Shown: piece by piece, positions 2,668-27,409 of the stretch
Layout of the letters: each line of letters starts with the position of its first letter
Position numbering within the stretch: position 1 is the first letter of the stretch
From: a virus
Length of the DNA stretch: 64,000 bases
Direction: 5' to 3' (one strand)
Virus record (IMG/VR): IMGVR_UViG_3300030387_000070
Position numbers and translations under genes: made by a program
The notes under the pieces: generated by a model
Databases searched by the model: none
What the model was told of the DNA's origin: nothing
What the model saw: the letters and a program-made list of their open reading frames with translations, nothing else

Positions 2668-3534
2668 ATGAAAAACCTGTATTGCTATGATAATGAAATC
2701 ATAAAATGGACTTTACGCGACAATCTATATTGTTTGCATATTCAGCACGATGATATTGCGGACAATAATCCTCGTTGGTGGGACGAACATGATTCTGTAA
2801 TGGCCTGTTTTCATTCTCGGTATCGTCTTGGTGATAAGATTGATGCGAGTACGGCAGAAGAGTTTTGGAACAATCTTGTTTACGAGTATTGCTCTGATGA
2901 AGAAATTCTGGATGCACTTTTTAACATGAAGTTGGAAGATACCTGTGTCGTTGTTGATGAGAATTACAGTGACGAAAAACGATATACTATTTGTGGTATC
3001 GGAACTCTTTTTGATAAAAAGGTCTCTAATAATCCAATGTATGTTGGATTAAAGTATAACGAAATTGCTACATATGTTGCTGGTGAATTTTCTATTCGAG
3101 ATTGTCAGATTCTTCTTGATAAGCATATTGCATGGCTTCCTCTTTGGCTGCACGATCACTCTGGTTTATCTATGGATTGTGATACACGGTTCAGAGGTTC
3201 GTTGGATGACAGTAATGTTGGTTGGATTGTGATCGCTATTACGGATGGTTCGGATAATACCAAAAACGAAGCAGAACGAATCATGCGTAACGAGGTAAAG
3301 ACTTACAGCGATTATCTTTCTGGTGAAAACTATGGCTATACGCTTTATAAAGAAGAGCATGGAGAGTGGAAAGAAATTGACAGAGCATTCGGATTTATCG
3401 GTTCCGATGTATTTGAAAACGGTATCACATACAGCGTTGGCTGTGGCCTTGAAACAGCATTAAAGGAAGATCGGTGCCGTATCGGTGATGCAGAGAAGGT
3501 TGTGACCGTCACTTATAACTTTGATAAATGTTGA
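2668..3534 (+). CDS. conserved phage protein, function unknown
   Basis: Track ORF 2629-3534 trimmed to ATG 2668 (GGGAG upstream). Motifs LWLHDHSGLSM and VKTYSDYLSGENYGYTLY..FGFIGSD recall a widespread phage/ICE family whose name I cannot give. Confidence 0.6.
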   Translation: MKNLYCYDNEIIKWTLRDNLYCLHIQHDDIADNNPRWWDEHDSVMACFHSRYRLGDKIDASTAEEFWNNLVYEYCSDEEILDALFNMKLEDTCVVVDENYSDEKRYTICGIGTLFDKKVSNNPMYVGLKYNEIATYVAGEFSIRDCQILLDKHIAWLPLWLHDHSGLSMDCDTRFRGSLDDSNVGWIVIAITDGSDNTKNEAERIMRNEVKTYSDYLSGENYGYTLYKEEHGEWKEIDRAFGFIGSDVFENGITYSVGCGLETALKEDRCRIGDAEKVVTVTYNFDKC

Positions 3535-3557
3535 GTCCTAAAAGGGGTTGAATAGAT

Positions 3558-3722
3558 ATGGCATATAAATACACCGAAGAAGAAGTTTGGGATGCGATTC
3601 ATACACTTTCTGATATGAGAGCTGGATTTAACTGCTTTGACGAAAATGATGTACAGAAGTATGAAGCGTGTTCAATGGGGATTGTTGCATTAAGAACGCT
3701 TGTGGACGCCGATAAAAGTTGA
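3558..3722 (+). CDS. hypothetical protein (54 aa)
   Basis: Hand-found ORF (MAYKYTEEEVWDAIHTLSDM..) with AAAGGGG upstream. Fills a gap. Confidence 0.4.
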   Translation: MAYKYTEEEVWDAIHTLSDMRAGFNCFDENDVQKYEACSMGIVALRTLVDADKS

Positions 3723-3742
3723 ATTTTAGGAGGAAAATAAAG

Positions 3743-4237
3743 ATGGATAACAACATGATGGAACGTCAGATTGCTAATTATATGGTAGAGTATGGTACTA
3801 AGAATACAAATTATGGCACATGGGTGTTTGAGGTTGATGAACTGGCGAAAAAGTTCAATATTACAGAGAAATGGATTCAGGAACATGAAGACGGTATTAT
3901 GTCTGAGCTGTATCTCAGAGAAGAAGTGGCTGACGTTGAACGTGAATTAAGCGGCAATGATATGACTATCACACTTTTTGATGTGAATTTCTACACCGAC
4001 TATTGCCCTAACTACATTGAAGACAAACAGGAAAAGGATGATGACGTAAATCAGTATTGGTTTGCAGAAACACGTTGGTGTACCGATGATATTATTGGTA
4101 TTGCAAAAGACAATGGAATTAAAATGACTCCGCAGCAAGCAGAACAGTGGTGGAAGAAGAATGAAAATTGGTTCAAGAATATCATTGTAGAATATGGTAA
4201 TGAAGTGCTGGAAGATGCAGATTTTAGTGAGGTGTAA
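3743..4237 (+). CDS. hypothetical protein
   Basis: Track ORF 3719-4237 trimmed to ATG 3743, behind TAGGAGGA. Confidence 0.55.
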   Translation: MDNNMMERQIANYMVEYGTKNTNYGTWVFEVDELAKKFNITEKWIQEHEDGIMSELYLREEVADVERELSGNDMTITLFDVNFYTDYCPNYIEDKQEKDDDVNQYWFAETRWCTDDIIGIAKDNGIKMTPQQAEQWWKKNENWFKNIIVEYGNEVLEDADFSEV

Positions 4238-4240
4238 GTT

Positions 4241-4477
4241 ATGTGGTGTGTTGTAGAGTGCAATTGTGACGGCGGAACTATTTTTAGCCCGGATTTTTTT
4301 GATACAAAGGAAGACGCAATTAAATTTATCGAAAATAATGCGAATGAATGCTACGAAAGTGAGTGTGATTTACCGGAAGCAAACATCTATATTGGAAATG
4401 ATGGACTTTCTGCCACAGTAAGCACTGATGAGTACAGTTGGGTATGGCAAGCATTTGATATTTCAAACAAGATTTAA
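4241..4477 (+). CDS. hypothetical protein
   Basis: Track ORF with GTGAGGTG upstream. Confidence 0.5.
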   Translation: MWCVVECNCDGGTIFSPDFFDTKEDAIKFIENNANECYESECDLPEANIYIGNDGLSATVSTDEYSWVWQAFDISNKI

Positions 4478-16670: not shown

Positions 16671-18884
16671 ATGAGAACGCTTTTGCTGTTCCGTGGAGCA
16701 CCAGGTTGTGGGAAGTCCACCTATATTAAAGAGCATAATCTTGAGCAGTATGTATTGAATGCTGATACACTTCGACTTATGTGCCAGAGCGCACAGGAAA
16801 CACCTGCCGGGCGGATGGAGATCTCTCCGCAGAATGATGATGTTGTATGGGAGATGCTTTTCAAACTGCTTGAGGTGCGTATGAGTCATGGCGAGTTTAC
16901 CGTGATTGATGCAACGAATTCCAAGACGGTCGAAATGAATCGTTATAAGAATCTTGCAAAACAGTATCGTTATCGGATGTATGTTATTGACATGACGGAC
17001 CTTCCGATTGAGGAATGCAAACGAAGAAACGCTCAGAGAGAATGGCTGAATCGAGTTCCTGAAGCGGCCATTGATAAGATGTACGCTCGGTTTGCTACTC
17101 AAAAAGTTCCTTCTGGTGTGACAGTTCTTCCTTCTACTACGGATGTGATGTCCGATTTGAACTACTGTCCGAATGACTTCAACCAGTGGAAGAAGATCCA
17201 TATCATCGGTGATGTTCATGGCTGTTATACTTGTTTAAGTGAATACCTTGGTGAGATGAAGGACGACGAACTGTATATCTTCGTTGGTGATTATCTCGAT
17301 CGTGGCATCGAAAACGTTGAGGTATTCAAGTTCTTGTGTGATGTTGTAAATAACAACCGCAAGAATGTGATCCTTTTGGAGGGCAATCATGAGTGTTGGC
17401 TAAACAAGTGGGGGCATGATGAACCGGTTCAGAGTGAAGAGTTTGCAAACTACACTCGTCCGCAGCTCTTTAAAGCCGGTATTGACAAGAACACTGCTCG
17501 TAAGATCTATTCCAGAGTAGGCCAATGTGCCTACTTTGAGTATGATGGGAAGCGGTATTTCGTGAGCCACGGTGGTTTGAGTTATCTGCCTTATTTTCTT
17601 CCTTTCGTATCTGCTGATCAGATGATTAAAGGTGTAGGTCGCTATCCTGATATGCTAACCGTGGCTGAGTCTTGGGAAAAATCGATGCCGGATAGCTACA
17701 TTCAGATCTTCGGCCATCGAAATGTGCAGGATGTTCCTATTGATATGGGGCATCGGTGCTACAATCTCGAAGGAAAAATCGAGTTTGGTGGATATCTCCG
17801 TTGCGTTGAACTTGAACACGGTCAGTCAATCAAATGTGTAGAAACCAAGAACGATGTGTTCCGAAAAGAGGAGCCAAAGACTGAAACTGCCGTTGAAATG
17901 AAAACTGAGTTCGATAACGCAGAACTTGTTAGTAAGATGCGTCAAAGCAAATATGTGTTTGAGAAGCGATTCGGAGATATTTCTTCTTTCAACTTCTCTC
18001 GTGAAGCATTTTATAAGAAGCACTGGGATGAGGTTTCTACCAAAGCAAGGGGATTGTTCATTAACACAAAGACGAATAAGATTGTAGCTCGAAGCTATGA
18101 TAAGTTCTTTGCGGTTGATGAGCGGAATGAAACGAGAATTGGAAACCTACAGAACACTTTGAAGTTCCCAGTGACTGCATATCTAAAAGAGAACGGATTT
18201 CTTGGTATCATTTCGTATGATGCAGAACAGGATGGTCTGTTCATTGCAAGTAAATCCACTCCTGAAGGGCCTTTTGCAGATATGTTCCGAAAGATTATTA
18301 TGGATACTACTTCCGATGAAGATCGTAAGAATCTGAAGGAGGTTGCCAAGGAGCATGGCTCCATCATCTTTGAGGTTATTGATCCTGTGAATGATGCTCA
18401 TATCATAGAATACAAGAAACCGCACATTGTTTTGCTGGATGTTGTTGCAAACGATATGAATTTCAGTGTGATAGATTATGATGACTTGAAACGTGTCGCA
18501 GAAAAGTGTCATCTGCAGATTAAGGAGAAGGTTAAAACCTTTGAGAACTGGAGTGAATTCTATCCTTGGTATGAGGAAGTCATGAATGAGAACTATCTGT
18601 ACCATGACATCGAGCATGTTGAAGGCTTTGTTCTGAGAGATAGTAACAACTTTATGTTCAAGTTAAAGCTTCCTTATTATAAGCATTGGAAGTTCCTGCG
18701 TGGTGTTATGAAGAGCGTCCAGAAACGTGGCTATTACGAAAACACCGCCAAGCTGTTTACGGCTGAAGATAATTTGTTCTATGGTTGGATGCGTGAGCAA
18801 CGAGAGAAAGATCAAGAGGCGTTCAGCAAGAAGGGAATCATTCAGCTGCGAAATGAGTTCTATGCAAGTCAGCAGAAGAGTTGA
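16671..18884 (+). CDS. polynucleotide kinase-phosphatase fused to an RNA-ligase-type nucleotidyltransferase (Pnkp-like RNA repair enzyme)
   Basis: P-loop FRGAPGCGKSTY. Calcineurin-type phosphoesterase boxes IHIIGDVHGC, GDYLDRG, EGNHE and SHGG. C-terminal module with ARGLFINT..YDKFFAVDE and LKENGFLG (a Kx[DN]G-type motif I). The three-domain order matches bacterial Pnkp. Confidence 0.75.
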   Translation: MRTLLLFRGAPGCGKSTYIKEHNLEQYVLNADTLRLMCQSAQETPAGRMEISPQNDDVVWEMLFKLLEVRMSHGEFTVIDATNSKTVEMNRYKNLAKQYRYRMYVIDMTDLPIEECKRRNAQREWLNRVPEAAIDKMYARFATQKVPSGVTVLPSTTDVMSDLNYCPNDFNQWKKIHIIGDVHGCYTCLSEYLGEMKDDELYIFVGDYLDRGIENVEVFKFLCDVVNNNRKNVILLEGNHECWLNKWGHDEPVQSEEFANYTRPQLFKAGIDKNTARKIYSRVGQCAYFEYDGKRYFVSHGGLSYLPYFLPFVSADQMIKGVGRYPDMLTVAESWEKSMPDSYIQIFGHRNVQDVPIDMGHRCYNLEGKIEFGGYLRCVELEHGQSIKCVETKNDVFRKEEPKTETAVEMKTEFDNAELVSKMRQSKYVFEKRFGDISSFNFSREAFYKKHWDEVSTKARGLFINTKTNKIVARSYDKFFAVDERNETRIGNLQNTLKFPVTAYLKENGFLGIISYDAEQDGLFIASKSTPEGPFADMFRKIIMDTTSDEDRKNLKEVAKEHGSIIFEVIDPVNDAHIIEYKKPHIVLLDVVANDMNFSVIDYDDLKRVAEKCHLQIKEKVKTFENWSEFYPWYEEVMNENYLYHDIEHVEGFVLRDSNNFMFKLKLPYYKHWKFLRGVMKSVQKRGYYENTAKLFTAEDNLFYGWMREQREKDQEAFSKKGIIQLRNEFYASQQKS

Positions 18885-19001
18885 GTTAAAATAGACATTT
18901 TATCGTGATTTTCGTTAAAATAATTAACGAAGTATCGTGATATTTATTCCTCCGAAAATGCCATGCGTGGGGCTGACAGCCGGGAAAGACCGGCGATATA
19001 T

Positions 19002-19083
19002 GCCAAGGTGCTGCAAATGGGAGACAGGGCGAGCCCAAACCTCGCTGTGGAAACACATGCGGTTTCGAATACCGTCCTTGGCA
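19002..19083 (+). tRNA. tRNA-Leu(CAA), type II, CCA encoded
   Basis: Hand fold:
- acceptor GCCAAGG/CCTTGGC
- 3-bp D stem
- anticodon stem GCGAG/CTCGC with loop CCCAAAC
- extra arm TGTG-GAAA-CACA
- T arm GCGGT-TTCGAAT-ACCGT
- then A and CCA
Position 33 is C, which is unusual. Confidence 0.65.
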
Positions 19084-19114
19084 CCAGATAATTTTATGAA
19101 GAAAGGATGATTGC

Positions 19115-19798
19115 ATGGTTAATAGGGCAGAAGATCATATTGGTGATGTCTTTGATTTGTTTGAGGTGATTGATGTTATTCGAGATGAAAATAATATTCC
19201 ATCTTACAAATGTCGATGTAAAGAATGTGGATGGACAGGGCTAAAAAATATAGCTCAGGCGAGAGCGGTTAAAGTGTGTCGGCATAAACAATCGAGTGGC
19301 GATTATAGAAATTTTTCTACACGGTGGAAAAACAAAAGAATCGGACGAATCTTTCATGGAATGAAAGCAAGATGCTATGATGTTGATGATAAAAACTATA
19401 TAACGTATGGCATGAAAGGAATTTGTGTTTATCAAGAATGGTTGGATAATCCAAAGTCATTTGAAGAGTGGTCGTTGAAAAATGGATACAAAGATAGTTT
19501 GACAATCGATAGAATTGATTCGACAAAAGATTACTGTCCTGATAATTGCAGATGGATATCATTGGAAGATAATTCAAAATATAAATCCACAACTCGAATG
19601 TTAGAAGTAGATGGTGAAATACATACGGGACGTGATTGGGCGGCAGAATTAGGGCTTGGAACAAACACGATAAATAAATATGTAAGAAGATACGGAGAAG
19701 ATAATACAAAACAATTTATAAGAAGAGTATTAAAGGACCCGGATAAAGTGAATTCTCGACAAGGGAAACAAACTATCTATAATCTTTACATGAACTAA
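19115..19798 (+). CDS. HNH-type homing-endonuclease-like protein
   Basis: LTIDRIDSTKDYCPDNCRWISLEDNS is the HNH_3-like core. N-terminal CxxC zinc motif (CRCKECG). C-terminal HTH-like WAAELGLGTNTINKYVRRYG. Sits between two tRNA genes. Confidence 0.65.
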   Translation: MVNRAEDHIGDVFDLFEVIDVIRDENNIPSYKCRCKECGWTGLKNIAQARAVKVCRHKQSSGDYRNFSTRWKNKRIGRIFHGMKARCYDVDDKNYITYGMKGICVYQEWLDNPKSFEEWSLKNGYKDSLTIDRIDSTKDYCPDNCRWISLEDNSKYKSTTRMLEVDGEIHTGRDWAAELGLGTNTINKYVRRYGEDNTKQFIRRVLKDPDKVNSRQGKQTIYNLYMN

Positions 19799-19805
19799 AT
19801 TGAAA

Positions 19806-19845
19806 TGGCCCAGTGTAAAAACTGAGTACATTGGGCCAAATATTT
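19806..19845 (+). terminator. hairpin terminator after the HNH gene
   Basis: 12-bp stem TGGCCCAGTGTA / TACATTGGGCCA (one G-U pair) with a 9-nt loop, followed by an A/T-rich tail. Confidence 0.5.
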
Positions 19846-19851
19846 ATATGA

Positions 19852-19935
19852 GCACCCGTGGTGAAATTGGCAACCACGATGGACTTAAAATCCATTCCCG
19901 GTAACGGGTTGCGAGTCCGAGTCTCGCCGGGTGCA
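19852..19935 (+). tRNA. tRNA-Leu(UAA), type II
   Basis: Hand fold:
- acceptor GCACCCG/CGGGTGC
- anticodon stem ATGGA/TCCAT with loop CTTAAAA
- extra arm CCCG-GTAA-CGGG
- T arm GCGAG-TCCGAGT-CTCGC (non-canonical T loop)
No encoded CCA. Confidence 0.65.
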
Positions 19936-19940
19936 TATTT

Positions 19941-20013
19941 CTGGGCGTAGCGAAGTTGGCATCGCACCTGTTTTGGGAACAGGGGACCGCAAGTTCAAAT
20001 CTTGTCGCTCAGA
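19941..20013 (+). tRNA. tRNA-Pro(UGG), CCA encoded
   Basis: Hand fold:
- acceptor CTGGGCG/CGCTCAG
- D arm GCGA..TCGC
- anticodon stem CCTGT/ACAGG with loop TTTGGGA
- T arm GCAAG-TTCAAAT-CTTGT
- then A and CCA. Confidence 0.75.
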
Positions 20014-20019
20014 CCACTA

Positions 20020-20106
20020 CGAGGATTCGCCAAGTTGGTAAGGCAGCGGAATTTGACTCCGCCAGCGCTGAACAAGCGGTCACAGGTTCGAGTCCTGTAT
20101 CCTCGG
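20020..20106 (+). tRNA. tRNA-Gln(UUG)-like with a 19-nt extra arm
   Basis: Hand fold:
- acceptor CGAGGAT/ATCCTCG
- D arm TCGCCAAGTTGGTAAGGCA
- anticodon stem GCGGA/TCCGC with loop ATTTGAC
- variable region CAGCGCTGAACAAGCGGTC (CGCT/AGCG hairpin)
- T arm ACAGG-TTCGAGT-CCTGT
- discriminator G. Confidence 0.55.
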
Positions 20107-20113
20107 CTTATAT

Positions 20114-20195
20114 GCGGGTATGGTGTAACTGGCAGCCACGTCAGATTTAGGATCTGATGCCGAAAGGCGTGAGGGATCGTGCCCCTCTACCCGTA
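20114..20195 (+). tRNA. tRNA-Leu(UAG), type II, CCA encoded
   Basis: Hand fold:
- acceptor GCGGGTA/TACCCGT (G1-U72)
- anticodon stem TCAGA/TCTGA with loop TTTAGGA
- extra arm GCC-GAAA-GGC
- T arm GAGGG-ATCGTGC-CCCTC (atypical loop)
- then A and CCA. Confidence 0.55.
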
Positions 20196-20297
20196 CCACG
20201 GTCATAGAATGGTTGCGTACCGTTTGTTGATCTCCTTTACTATTATTCCCGGCTCGCCAGTGATGGTGCAGTAGTGCTTTGTAAGCTGGGTTTTCAT

Positions 20298-20369
20298 GCA
20301 GCGGTCGTACAACGGCTAGTACATCAGCCTTCCAAGCTGAGGATGAGGTTTCGACTACCTTTCGCTGCT
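20298..20369 (+). tRNA. tRNA-Gly(UCC), CCA encoded
   Basis: Hand fold:
- acceptor GCAGCGG/TCGCTGC
- D arm GTAC..GTAC
- anticodon stem TCAGC/GCTGA with loop CTTCCAA
- T arm GAGGT-TTCGACT-ACCTT
- then T and CCA. Confidence 0.75.
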
Positions 20370-20560
20370 CCAATCTTGTATGGGTAGGATCTTTAGCGGT
20401 CAGATCCAGCCGCGCCTGTGCAAGATACCACCCCGAAAGGGGCGAGATATAGGAAATGTGCATCGCTGTTATTCCTTCCTCGTCTATATGATATAGATGC
20501 AATAGTGTTTTATAAGGAAGGTCCCCAGTTGAATAGTTGCAGCTGTTTGACTGGTAATAT

Positions 20561-20634
20561 GGGATAGTAGCTCAGTTGGTCAGAGCTGGCGGCTCATAAC
20601 CGCTTGGTCGCGAGTTCAAATCTTGCCTGTCCCA
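20561..20634 (+). tRNA. tRNA-Met/Ile2(CAU)
   Basis: Hand fold:
- acceptor GGGATAG/CTGTCCC
- D arm GCTC-AGTTGGTCA-GAGC
- anticodon stem GGCGG/CCGCT with loop CTCATAA
- T arm GCGAG-TTCAAAT-CTTGC. Confidence 0.75.
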
Positions 20635-20742
20635 CTAACCCGATAGGGTGAATACATAGAATTTGCTAGAAATTTTGTTTTATGGGCGAATAAATAATAT
20701 GACGTTGATACGTCTATTATTTTTCGCTAATTTTTAAAGTTT

Positions 20743-20763
20743 TAGCTATGTAACACAGGATAC
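20743..20763 (+). promoter_or_regulatory. 21-bp motif, forward (copy 3)
   Basis: TAGCTATGTAACACAGGATAC, 18 nt upstream of GTG 20781. A/T-rich upstream sequence (CTAATTTTTAAAGTTT). Confidence 0.55.
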
Positions 20764-20780
20764 GAAAAGGAGGTGGTTTG

Positions 20781-21503
20781 GTGAAACATTATGGAAGTAT
20801 TTGCGAGATTGATGGTTCTAAGATTGAGCCTGTCTCGTGTATCACTGGTGGTTCACCTTGTTAGCCAAGACCTTTCTATTGCCGGCAAGCGGGCAGGTTT
20901 GGCTGGAGAACGGTCTGGTCTATTTATGGAAATGATTCGTGTGATAAAGGAGATGAGGGAGGCCACCAATGGAGAGTATCCAAAATTTGCAATCTGGGAA
21001 AACGTCCCAGGAGCCTTCTCTTCCAACAAAGGAGAAGACTTTAGATGTGTCTTGGAAGAATTTGCACGCATTGTCGAACCAAGTGTTTCAGTTCCTCGAC
21101 CTTCGGGAAGAGAATGTAAGTGGGCAAAAGCTGGAGCAATCGCCGGAAACGGATGGTCCTTGGCGTGGAGATTATTCGACGCTAGTGGTTGGGGTGTTCC
21201 CCAGCGTAGAAAACGTCTCGCGCTTGTCATGGACCTTAGAGGACAATGTGCCGGAAAAGTATTATTTGAGCAAACGGGCGTGTCAGGGGATCTTGATAAG
21301 AGCGTCAAGACGTGGAAAACCATTGCCCGACCTTCTGAAGGATGCACTGCAGGAGATGATTCATTGGTGGGAGATGAAAGATCCTACACTTTGAAGATTC
21401 GTTCTGGCTGCGCAGGGGGGGTAAAGGAGCACTCGTGCAGAATGAATTGAGTGCGACTCTCTCCACTTTGCAAGATCAGACTTTGTTCTGTGTAAAGCAT
21501 TAA
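20781..21503 (+). pseudogene. C5-cytosine DNA methyltransferase, catalytic part (motifs IV-VIII), frame-disrupted
   Basis: - GTG 20781 follows AAGGAGG by 7 nt and gives ..IEPVSCITGGSPC, then TAG at 20862.
- One frame over: QDLSIAGKRAGLAGERSGLF, WENVPGAFSS, GVPQRRKRLALV.
- Further homologous-looking pieces lie in the two other frames: ..LEDNVPEKYYLSKRACQGIL.. and GGKGALVQNELSATLSTLQDQTLF.
- At least 3 frame changes are needed to read all of this. Confidence 0.7.
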
Positions 21504-21515
21504 GGAGGGAACGGA

Positions 21516-22262
21516 TTGGAAAAAGAAACCAGTTTACATAATTTAAAACAAAATATTTCCACAGCGGTATTTGAAAGCCATAGTCAGGATGCTCGATACA
21601 CTCAGCAAGGTAATACAAGCCCAGCTTGTACAGCTCAATGGGGTACTGGTGGTAATAATATGCCGCTTGTCGCTGAAAAGAAAGCCTTTGCTATGCAGCG
21701 TATTGGCGAATATAAGGAAAGCGAACAGGCCAGCACAATGAAATCTCGTGATTATAAAGATGCAACTGATCTTGTAGTTGAAGAGAAAGAGGTGAAATGT
21801 GCTGGGTTTCCACTTGGATTTAGAGCAGAAAATACGAAATGCTACGATGAAGTGGCTACTACGCTTTGCAATGGTACGCGGCCTGGATTTACTACTGGAT
21901 GTGTTCTCAATTGGATTGTTCGCCGCTTGACTCCTGTTGAGTGTGAACGGTTACAGGGTTTTCCTGATGGATGGACCGATATTGGCGAGTGGGTTGACGA
22001 AAATGGTAAAAAGCACAAGCCAGCCGATTCTCCTCGGTACAAGGCGCTCGGCAATTCGATTGCTTTGCCTCAGTGGTATTGGATTTGCCAGAAGATGAAA
22101 CCGTATATTGGTGAAAATCCTACGCTTGGCAGTCTTTTCGATGGAATCGGTGGCTTTCCGCTTGTCTTTGAAAGTACGTATGGTGATGGTACTGCTATCT
22201 GGGGATCTGAAATTGAATCGTTTTGTGTTGCGGTGACAAAGAAGCATTTTCCAGAAGACTAA
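21516..22262 (+). CDS. C5-cytosine DNA methyltransferase, target-recognition and motif IX-X part with a C-terminally appended motif I-II
   Basis: TTG start 7 nt after AAGGAGG. Contains WGTGGNNMPLV, VRRLTPVECERLQGFPDGWT and RYKALGNSIALP. It then continues into LGSLFDGIGGFPLVFE..IWGSEIESFCVAVTKKHFPED*, which is the FxGxGG AdoMet motif normally found at the N-terminus. Confidence 0.75.
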   Translation: MEKETSLHNLKQNISTAVFESHSQDARYTQQGNTSPACTAQWGTGGNNMPLVAEKKAFAMQRIGEYKESEQASTMKSRDYKDATDLVVEEKEVKCAGFPLGFRAENTKCYDEVATTLCNGTRPGFTTGCVLNWIVRRLTPVECERLQGFPDGWTDIGEWVDENGKKHKPADSPRYKALGNSIALPQWYWICQKMKPYIGENPTLGSLFDGIGGFPLVFESTYGDGTAIWGSEIESFCVAVTKKHFPED

Positions 22263-22299
22263 ATCTCATAAAAGGCTAATTCAAATAAGAGGTGACACG

Positions 22300-22506
22300 A
22301 TGAACAGCAAATTTCCTATCAATGCAACCATCGACCCCGGCTCTTTGAATATTCCGGCAAGTCCTATCTTCCAAAAGGAAAAGAATACATATCTTTGTCC
22401 GTTTTGTGTGACGAAGCTGGAGAAGTTCGAGCGTGAATGTTCTGATTGTCATCGCAAGATGGATTGGAGTAGGTTTACTGAAAAGAAGGAGGAGATGTTC
22501 ACTTGA
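22300..22506 (+). CDS. small zinc-ribbon protein
   Basis: Track ORF with CPFC...CSDC pairs. Confidence 0.5.
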   Translation: MNSKFPINATIDPGSLNIPASPIFQKEKNTYLCPFCVTKLEKFERECSDCHRKMDWSRFTEKKEEMFT

Positions 22507-26193: not shown

Positions 26194-27409
26194 ATGGATA
26201 ATACAGTTCATGACGCTCAAAGATTGAAGGAGCTTCAGGCACTCCCTCTTGAGCGAAAGATTCAAATCACTCAAAATCGCATCCAGGAATGGTATATGCA
26301 CTATGATGGCGGTGTGTACGTAAGCTTCTCCGGTGGTAAGGATTCTACTGTACTTGCTCATTTGACAAAGCAGCTGTTCCCAGATGTCCCGCTTGTGTTT
26401 AGTAATACAGGCTTGGAATACTCGTCAATCCAGAAATTTGCACGAAACGCAGATGCTGTTTTTGTTTATCCCAAGATGGGATTTAGTGATGTGGTCTCTA
26501 CATATGGTTATCCTCTTATCTCTAAAGAAGTGGCTGAAGCGATTTACTACGCTAGACGAATCAGAAATAGCGGCGCAGCCACCATGAGAGAGAGAGAGAG
26601 TAAGAACAACTCTCAGGAAAAAACAAGAACTTCTGGGTTTAAGGATGAACTGTCTGGGAGGTGTCTTTAGCAACCCGTGGCTTTACGATGAAACAGGAGT
26701 CTTTCAAGGAAACAGACGGACGATTCTACTTGGTAATGAACCGGGAGCTGAAATGCAGGCTGGAACAAAATCCATGTTCAATAAGGAAAAATGGTTGCCA
26801 GCAACACAAGAACTTCCGTTTGCAATTTCTCATTACTGCTGTTCAGTTATGAAAAAAGGTCCGATGAAGAAGTACGCAAGGGCAACCAAGCGTAAACCTA
26901 TTATTGGAACGTTGACTGATGAAAGTCGTGTTCGCAAGCAAGCTTGGATTCGACATGGGTGTAATGCTTTTGATAGCAAGTCTCCAACAAGTCAGCCTAT
27001 GAGTTTTTGGACTGAGCAGGACGTGCTCACTTTCATCAAACAGTCAGGAATTCAAATTGCAGATGTCTATGGCGATATTGTTCCTACGAGTGATAAGCCG
27101 GATGCGCCATTGTGCTGTACTGGGTGTGATCGTACCGGATGCACGTTTTGCGGATTTGGAGCTCACAACAAGAATGACAATAGATTCTCAACTCTTGCAG
27201 AACTTGACCCAAAGAAGTACGAGTATAGTATGAATGGTGGTCAATGGGTAGACAATCCAAAATATGATGCAACTGCACCAGAGTATGATGGTGTATGGAA
27301 GAATTGGAACCCGAAGAAAATCTGGGTGCCAAGCAAAGAAGGTCTTGGACTGAGAAAAGTTTTCGATATGTTTAATGAACTGTATCCAAACAACAAAATT
27401 CAATATTAA
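26194..27409 (+). pseudogene. PAPS-reductase-like PP-loop protein, frame broken
   Basis: YVSFSGGKDSTVLAHL is the PP-loop SGGKDS motif. The reading frame changes by +1 between track ORFs 26194-26670 and 26645-27409. The second frame is already open from 26588 (ERERVRTTLRKKQELLGLRMNCLGG..). Confidence 0.65.
26586..26600 (+). repeat. (GA)7G dinucleotide tract
   Basis: GAGAGAGAGAGAGAG, read directly. It lies where the two frames of the PAPS-reductase-like gene overlap. Confidence 0.95.

Follow-up and report, generated by a model that had tools for sequence, protein, structure and literature searches.

Results and Discussion

We analysed a stretch of 64,000 nucleotides of viral DNA, the IMG/VR virus record IMGVR_UViG_3300030387_000070 (hereafter referred to as the window), which contains the phage-like locus of a C5-cytosine DNA methyltransferase directly downstream of seven tRNA genes. 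Within the methyltransferase gene a second reading frame (frame B), shifted by +1 relative to that of the enzyme (frame A), is open at the same time, and we hold it to be probable, at about 70%, that the doubly open stretch represents the 3' half of a second protein-coding gene, termed ORF B (open reading frame B), which is nested in the methyltransferase gene. In the approximately 50 codons past motif VIII of the enzyme, selection acts on frame B, and frame A needs no more than to remain open there, its role being that of a linker. The nested ORF appears to be undescribed, as no account of it was found in the literature searched, the coverage of which excluded subscription-only papers.

A first-pass annotation of the window had pointed to positions 21182 to 21394 as a stretch readable in two frames. 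Both frames are indeed open there, and the doubly open part is longer than had been noted. Frame A (coordinate modulo 3 equal to 1) forms an ORF which spans 20791 to 21450 and reads ..QRRKRLALVMDLRGQCAGK..SGCAGG and also ..GVPQRRKRLALVMDLRGQCAGK..SYTLKIRSGCAGG. Frame B reads ..SRLSWTLEDNVPEKYYLSKRACQGIL..DPTL* and also ..SRLSWTLEDNVPEKYYLSKRACQGILIRASRRGKPLPDLLKDAL..DPTL, ending at CTT TGA. The G tract, the CTT TGA, the TAA and the downstream TTG start are located exactly where that annotation had placed them (Table 1).

Table 1. Coordinates of the features of the methyltransferase locus within the window.
Feature	Position	Strand	Basis or remark
Start of the permuted gene, frame 0: GTG (20781) with ribosome-binding site GGAGG (20769-20773)	20769..20783	+	sequence; conserved in relatives
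N-terminal 27 codons, VKHYGS..GGSPC (motif III and PC of motif IV), with in-frame TAG at 20862-20864	20781..20864	+	
TGT TAG C: catalytic cysteine codon followed by four inserted bases, TAGN; reading goes on in the +1 frame as (S)QDLSIAGKR	20859..20865	+	
Frame A (frame 1): motifs IV-VIII, QRRKR (21202-21216), linker, SYTLKIRSGCAGG	20863..21450	+	PF00145
Internal Shine-Dalgarno sequence GGAGG (20958-20962), 6-nt spacer, ATG (20969)	20958..20971	+	start of ORF B
Nested ORF B, frame 2, +1 of A, ATG start, 141 codons	20969..21394	+	open frame; inside A ORF 20791-21450
C-terminal domain of B, LS.ILE..VPEKYYLS.KAC.GIL.RA.RRGK.LP..L..AL, predicted three helices	21224..21379	+	codon-phase switch, pN/pS, AlphaFold2
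CTT TGA, stop of ORF B	21389..21394	+	made by frame-A codons ACT TTG AAG (T-L-K)
G7 homopolymer	21415..21421	+	only G/C run of at least 6 in the window
Tail GGKGALVQNELSATLSTLQDQTLFCVKH (GGKGALVQ..CVKH*), frame 0, to TAA at 21501-21503	21417..21503	+	part of the YTLKIRSGC.GGGKG..QDQTLF module
GGAGG (21504-21508), 7-nt spacer, TTG start (21516) of ORF2	21504..21518	+	12 nt after TAA, same frame as tail
ORF2: rest of variable region, motifs IX, X, then I, II (permuted end)	21516..22262	+	PF00145; pN/pS 0.13

Selection changes frame behind motif VIII

In the window, the +1 frame stays open for 145 codons, compared to a median of 57 codons in synonymous-codon shuffles of A (P = 0.016 for the window alone). 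From IMG/VR, 80 related loci (designated by L numbers) were fetched by means of a frame-A query which ends at motif VIII, so that this set is not biased towards B. In every one of them B is shifted by +1 relative to A, and its frame is open over 130 to 205 codons in each of the 87 related loci scored (87/87). Over the last 80 codons up to the end of motif VIII, not one of 30 non-redundant representatives (30/30) contains a stop in the +1 frame, where the shuffles predict 0.9 to 4.4. Over the same codons, the +2 frame of these representatives contains one to nine stops.

The codon positions at which related loci vary reveal which of the two frames is constrained. Up to motif VIII, the third position of frame A is the most variable one (0.43-0.64), with the exception of two scanned segments falling into the variable loop between motifs VI and VII. 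Over the 45 to 50 codons which follow motif VIII, the first position of A, being the wobble position of B, becomes most variable (0.40-0.64), and the third position of A, which is the second of B, drops to the least variable (down to 0.21-0.36). This switch is present in relatives of canonical motif order and in permuted relatives alike, and the phase goes back to that of A at YTLKIRSGC.

The ratio of non-synonymous to synonymous polymorphism (pN/pS) behind motif VIII, read in A and in B, respectively, amounts to 0.89 and 0.20 in the group of the window, where the unconstrained frame-A linker reaches from 21217 to about 21375 and motifs IV-VIII show a value of 0.10. It amounts to 0.89 and 0.13 in the L018 group, 1.67 and 0.11 in the L017 group, 2.01 and 0.20 in the L075 group, 1.80 and 0.29 in the L066 group, and 1.13 and 0.41 in L068/L069/L084. 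Over motifs VI-VIII it is A which is constrained (0.08-0.31) and B which is not (at least 0.85); values obtained there with a fixed offset for the L066 group (0.94 vs 0.86) are unreliable, probably due to indels, and were not used. Distant pairs share identities of 0.47-0.73 in B compared to 0.27-0.51 in A, and across phyla of differing GC content BLOSUM62 scores reach 99-155 if read in B and 12-102 if read in A, with conservative substitutions. As expected of an overprinted gene, purifying selection is assignable to the alternative frame by codon phase as well as by pN/pS. The test for selection on both frames which the first-pass annotation had proposed finds A constrained before and B after motif VIII. 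Its idea that the family really uses overlapping frames is borne out in a more general form than it had envisaged, with purifying selection on B in all groups tested.

Frame B might owe its conservation to something other than coding, such as an element acting at the level of RNA or DNA, or the mere persistence of an ancestral frame by inertia. Canonical C5 methyltransferases presumably contain an in-frame segment after motif VIII which resembles B (..L.DILE....KY.LS.K..), so that B would possibly be a relic of it. We consider a non-coding explanation extremely improbable. The three-base periodicity fits the codon phase of B, amino-acid exchanges between phyla of different GC content are conservative, the frame is free of stops at saturating synonymous divergence, and a fold is predicted with confidence. 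Nor does the PF00145 score rise when B is spliced in behind motif VIII to replace the A linker (85.4 vs 84.5; 115.5 vs 117).

Start signals and predicted fold of ORF B

The start signals of B look selected, judging from the frame-A codons by which they are made (Table 1). At the E-M-R site, an Arg codon AGG creates the GAGG resembling a Shine-Dalgarno (SD) sequence in 18 of 26 cases compared to a background of 10%, and at the N-G site an Asn codon AAT creates the ATG in 22 of 22 cases compared to a background of 62%. Based on a 40-sequence alignment, AlphaFold2 predicts residues 91-140 of B with a pLDDT (predicted local distance difference test) of 86-97 and places helices at residues 86-92, 102-115 and 121-137, while residues 1-90 reach values of about 50-60. 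Our searches recovered no fold or sequence relative.

A different use of the same codons would be a programmed +1 frameshift from A to B just after motif VIII, the product of which would be a truncated enzyme carrying B as an alternative C-terminus. B is indeed +1 of A, and its conserved part begins within about six codons of motif VIII; moreover, the database fragment P0096 is continuous across the junction (..QRRKRIHLVADF|KDNAPEKYYLS..), and the junction of the window, GAC CTT AGA G, resembles the Ty1 site CUU AGG C, a site cited in PMC5009743. We nevertheless regard such a shift as unlikely. No slippery motif or heptamer is conserved at the junction over the 30 representatives (examples being GAT TTT AAT, GAT CTT ACA, AGT GCT CGA and GAC CTT AGA), and at least 80 stop-free codons of B lie upstream of it, which a frameshift at this place would not need. 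The SD sequence and the ATG at the head of B look selected, and motif VIII is in frame with B in just one of 150 protein-cluster representatives. The first-pass annotation had reasoned that a single uninterrupted ORF in orthologues would speak against its proposal. Many orthologues do possess one continuous A ORF, but B is still nested inside it, and the overlap therefore points to a second gene rather than to a frameshift junction.

Spread and relatives of ORF B

Homologues exist for both frames when these are searched separately, A matching PF00145 and B being recovered by tblastn and phmmer. A word-indexed protein search with a B peptide of 58 residues gave three candidates and proved too insensitive for so short a query, so that an exhaustive search was needed. 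With the B peptide, tblastn finds matches in 133 phage records, and exhaustive phmmer identifies 1934 protein-cluster representatives which carry the domain. In every phage record opened (Streptococcus phage Javan191, NatCom_9291, the P1-like RCS47, Vibrio phage K457, Mycobacterium phage Porcelain, Pseudomonas phage D14E and P1) the match falls into an alternative frame, shifted by +1 relative to that of an annotated methyltransferase coding sequence (CDS). A single narrow peptide pattern yields 480 confirmed stretches in species-representative bacterial genomes, and of the 73 bacterial-genome loci classified, 61 contain B within an A ORF which is itself continuous. In dmt of phage P1 (L170 1159-1650; AF234173.1 at about 66710-67201) the +1 frame is open for 163 codons which end ..LSQVLEQTSIPQRYFLSSKACAGILRRGEKRRKSLPPLLQMAL.., and the retrieved stretch of the P1 record, which has 534 features, contains no gene annotated inside dmt at the position of B.

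Among the top 150 cluster representatives, 110 lack an in-frame methyltransferase motif according to a pattern screen and are mostly short ORFs; B is followed by motif IX in frame in 21, and motif VIII precedes it in frame in the single case mentioned above. Relatives of the alpha/beta type, as the first-pass annotation had suspected, are represented by two loci. L089 contains an alpha ORF with motifs I-VIII and, sharing about 400 nt with it, a beta ORF which comprises B, the target recognition domain (TRD) and motifs IX and X. In L011 (IMGVR_UViG_3300045988_100721, about 3370-4300), which shares 98% identity with the window, the DNA between ..DPTL and LHNLKQ.. is deleted, so that B is fused in frame to ORF2, giving a beta-type product composed of the B domain, TRD, IX, X, I and II. 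A search of viral contigs with the beta-type protein P0081 gave no match, and it was recovered via its encoding contig instead.

A permuted and divided methyltransferase

PF00145 matches the reconstructed upstream ORF (ORF1) with E = 6e-21 and ORF2 with E = 4.6e-10. The motifs GGSPC, ENVPG, QRRKR, RRLTPVECERLQGFP, GNSIALP and LFDGIGG can be read from the sequence, and their order is III/IV-VIII, TRD, IX, X, I, II. ORF2 ends where an ordinary enzyme would go on into motif III. Since the gene starts at motif III/IV and ORF2 ends after motif II, the new N-terminus lies between motifs II and III, and by its motif order the methyltransferase is a natural circular permutant of the “Type B” topology of Slaska-Kiss et al. 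2018 (PMC5944983). Type B was reported as the most active of the engineered forms, with no natural example. The window's enzyme shares with M.BssHII, M.Alw26I, M2.Eco31I, M.Esp3I and M2.BsaI that motifs IX-X precede motif I; yet their permutation (Type H, the M.BssHII group) falls into the variable region, whereas the window's family starts between motifs II and III and hence falls outside Type H. The permuted order is common to most IMG/VR relatives (L009-L067, L001, L002), including the Faecalibacterium phages FP_Toutatis and Lelie, and the canonical order is found in some close relatives (L068, L069, L075, L077, L079, L080, L084, L088). L009, an IMG/VR contig of 129.5 kb, is identical to the window over the stretch compared, and no GenBank phage matched positions 20700-22300 with near-identical DNA.

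The 27 N-terminal codons show a pN/pS of 0.19 in frame 0 compared to 1.9 and 1.7 in the other frames (9 haplotypes). The YTLKIRSGC.GGGKG..QDQTLF module follows the phase of frame A in relatives, its diversity being 0.42-0.51 at position 3 and at most 0.22 at positions 1 and 2. The split by TAA, ribosome-binding site and TTG, which lies after ..QDQTLFCVKH inside the variable region, is restricted to the close group of the window, where all seven members inspected possess it (L010-L013, L015, L016 and the window). In L017, L018, L027 and L042 there is no break at this position and the frame continues as ..QDQTLICLADN.SLHNLKQ...

With three frame interruptions in the window (TAG at 20862, G7 and TAA at 21501), a further 1-nt frame change in the tail of L013 and a second gene of the window, encoding a PAPS-reductase domain (26194-27409), split at a (GA)n repeat, the locus might be suspected to be a pseudogene or to suffer from assembly indels, the second open frame then being accidental. 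Decay or error of this kind, which the first-pass annotation had listed among its options, is very improbable and already largely refuted. Within the interrupted lineage, motifs IV-VIII show a pN/pS of 0.10, ORF2 one of 0.13, the N-terminal codons one of 0.19 and the B domain one of 0.20. In addition, the TAG insertion and the TAA/ribosome-binding site/TTG junction recur in independent assemblies, and an open frame B is common to all loci scored.

A stop codon behind the catalytic cysteine

The catalytic PCQ motif is not encoded in one continuous frame, as TGT TAG C interrupts it. This TAGN insertion, defined relative to a plain TGC/TGT CAA, occurs in 24 sequences, i.e. in 23 fetched viral loci and in the window, and both of its flanks are under purifying selection in different frames (pN/pS 0.19 and 0.10). 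At the site, 18 nt (GGTGGTTCACCTTGTTAG) are invariant, and the base following TAG is C in 21 cases, A in two and T in one. Long-term retention of the TAG had seemed to follow from a comparison of the window and L017 groups, an argument which we rejected because their 5' modules look nearly identical in nucleotides; this near-identity, common to most of the 24 sequences, suggests a recombined mosaic, and the two groups are thus not independent. Only L081/L082, where the TAGN site is located in a visibly diverged 5' module, give real depth to its conservation; their close relative L078 has a plain TGC CAA.

This arrangement would most simply be explained by a +1 shift at UGU UAG N which depends on the stop codon, making it a candidate recoding site yielding PC-S-QDLS; such a shift would give the peptide ..GGSPCSQDLSIAGK... 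As in the +1 sites of prfB, which encodes release factor 2 (RF2), and of antizyme, an in-frame stop is followed by a continuation in the +1 frame. Unlike in prfB, the stop is UAG rather than UGA, the P-site UGU cannot re-pair in the +1 frame, and the product would contain an extra residue. We also considered a reassignment of TAG and rejected it, as TAG readthrough adds less ORF length than that of TGA or TAA and none of the seven tRNAs is a suppressor (0/7). RNA structure 3' of the site is inconspicuous, z ranging from -0.4 to -1.0 and not differing from relatives which lack the TAG.

At the very same spot dmt of RCS47 (L005, residues about 78-420) contains an intein-like insertion at the PC motif (..GGTP|CFTAGHMV...VVHN|CQAFS.., judged by pattern only), and P1 dmt (L170) reads an uninterrupted GTPCQAFS.

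The G tract and the CTT TGA site

Relatives which are 95-100% identical to the window and possess identical flanks differ in the length of the G run, which amounts to 7 (window, L009, L016), 8 (L010, L015), 10 (L012, L014) or 11 (L013). In L017 the same Gly-Gly-Gly is encoded as GGTGGTGGC instead of a G run. Lengths of 8 and 11 join A to the conserved tail, the stop of ORF1 then being located inside the ribosome-binding site of ORF2, and lengths of 7 and 10 end ORF1 at 21450, i.e. 66 nt upstream of ORF2. The window represents the out-of-frame state, in which frame A runs on to a TGA at 21448-21450; one added G would, as had been predicted, fuse ..SGCAGG to GKGALVQ. An in-ORF tract which differs in length between near-identical genomes and thereby changes the frame is what characterises a contingency locus, and the variation fits phase variation of the contingency type, one of the options listed by the first-pass annotation. 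The G run would be hypermutable and decide whether frame A retains the conserved tail of 26 residues.

Two cultured Faecalibacterium phages carry a poly-G between motifs VI and VII, namely FP_Toutatis (G9, L001 2892-2900) and Lelie (G14, L002 2887-2900). Their methyltransferases differ only by this run, and neither length gives a continuous enzyme; with G9, the N-terminal frame of FP_Toutatis runs straight into B (annotated as a CDS of 201 aa). G/C runs of at least 7 occur 34 times in 180 kb of these genes and eight times in 346 kb of flanks, corresponding to a roughly 8-fold higher density. L072 and L083 each contain four separate runs of G7-G9 inside the methyltransferase gene. In phase-variable methyltransferases (phasevarions, type III mod), as in the window, a poly-G inside the ORF sets the frame by its length (PMC3711429). 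Unlike type III mod, the gene considered here is that of a phage C5 methyltransferase, and the tract affects only the last 26 residues of ORF1 and possibly the coupling to ORF2.

CUU UGA is the shift site of the RF2 gene prfB. In the G7 state, a +1 shift at the CTT TGA which ends ORF B would lead from B into the frame 0 tail GGKGALVQ, the product of which would contain ..MKDPTLEDSFWLRRGGKGALVQ.., and a run of G7 or G10 indeed puts the tail exactly in frame B+1. The first-pass annotation had singled out this site, but its likeness to prfB is not borne out. The position varies even among relatives of 95-99% identity (CTT TAA in L015, CTT CGA in L016), frame B of FP_Toutatis ends ..PTP*, and the SD-like element expected 3 nt upstream of such a site is missing. 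Furthermore, LKIRSGCAGG would become EDSFWLRR, so that the module which evolves strictly in the phase of frame A would be skipped. A prfB-like shift is therefore scarcely conceivable to us, and the CTT TGA looks incidental, as a by-product of conserved frame-A codons for T-L-K.

Proposed role of ORF B

According to our best reading, B would be a partner of the enzyme which is nested in its gene and translated on its own, much like the beta polypeptide of M.EcoHK31I. It would be translated from its own start to give a small product, of which the N-terminal approximately 85 residues, overprinted on motifs VI-VIII, would be disordered and the C-terminal approximately 50 residues would form the conserved three-helix domain. 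Because some relatives fuse B in frame to the half of the enzyme which harbours the variable region (TRD) and motifs IX-X, the domain may work together with this half as a detachable subunit or partner.

In M.EcoHK31I the methyltransferase gene contains, in another frame and entirely within its bounds, the code for a small polypeptide which acts together with the large chain (PMC2836561). B likewise lies wholly within A, as it does in the majority of bacterial-genome loci given above. In contrast, the beta polypeptide of M.EcoHK31I supplies motif IX, whereas B lacks this motif, which stays in the main frame (ORF2); also unlike it, B provides a three-helix module directly after motif VIII and possesses a long N-terminal part overprinting motifs VI-VIII. 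M.AquI is a further point of comparison, the two ORFs of which reportedly overlap. As cited in PMC5944983, M.AquI is divided in two at a point past motif VIII and ahead of the variable region. L089 with its alpha and beta ORFs has precisely this layout. The window does not show such an alpha/beta split, as B stops at 21394 and the second subunit has its own TTG at 21516. Neither here nor in most relatives is B connected to TRD-IX-X, the enzyme of the window is split at a different place, after ..QDQTLFCVKH, and the overlap is far longer than in M.AquI, with about 250 nt before the conserved domain and 426 nt in total.

In a wider sense, a large clade of C5 methyltransferases of phages and mobile elements, spread over several phyla and including Dmt of P1, might constitute an obligate two-product locus with a hidden +1 gene which supplies a three-helix module that the enzyme needs or is controlled by, in the gut-phage lineage complemented by a programmed +1 frameshift at UGU-UAG and by a poly-G switch. 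Taken jointly, these proposals are tentative and stand at odds clearly short of even.

Several observations weigh against our interpretation. We infer the translation of B from the codon bias at SD sequence and ATG and from a fold prediction, and the codon counts of 18/26 and 22/22 at the start signals are uncorrected for shared ancestry. Over the N-terminal approximately 85 codons of B there is no constraint at the protein level (pN/pS at least 0.85), the open frame rather than the sequence being kept. The L058 group fails to separate the frames, with a pN/pS of 0.45 in A compared to 0.38 in B. No family of Pfam or NCBIfam matches B, and one PHROG family matches it weakly. Finally, differences in the G tract between metagenome assemblies could in part be homopolymer assembly errors.

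Neighbouring genes

The PAPS-reductase-domain gene of the window is split into two ORFs (26194-26670 and 26645-27409) which overlap and differ in frame, and between which the Pfam profile is divided. Both the (GA)n repeat ATGAGAGAGAGAGAGAGTAAG and an A6 run are located in the region where the frame has to change, and the gene, a further one of DNA modification, may thus contain another repeat by which frames are switched. An ORF of 737 aa within 16671-20635 combines kinase, phosphoesterase and T4-type RNA ligase domains, a combination which suggests RNA repair. It adjoins the seven tRNA genes (Leu x3, Pro, Gln, Gly, Met), between which an ORF of 227 aa is located.

Implications

Co-directional overlaps of more than 60 bp are, according to the abstract of a preprint (10.1101/724807), essentially non-existent in prokaryotes. 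The A/B overlap measures about 400 nt and has been conserved in phages whose hosts belong to the Bacillota, Proteobacteria and Actinobacteria, and over one stretch of 50 codons it is the unannotated frame which is under selection. The family provides natural examples of the “Type B” permutation, and the locus offers a candidate site of stop-codon-dependent +1 recoding on a catalytic residue. Phage P1 is a convenient system for the nested ORF, and the readings put forward here are directly testable in P1 and E. coli. If B is indeed a subunit or regulator of the enzyme, the family, including Dmt of P1 and prophage Dcm, would be incompletely described in annotations, in expression constructs and in the interpretation of methylomes.

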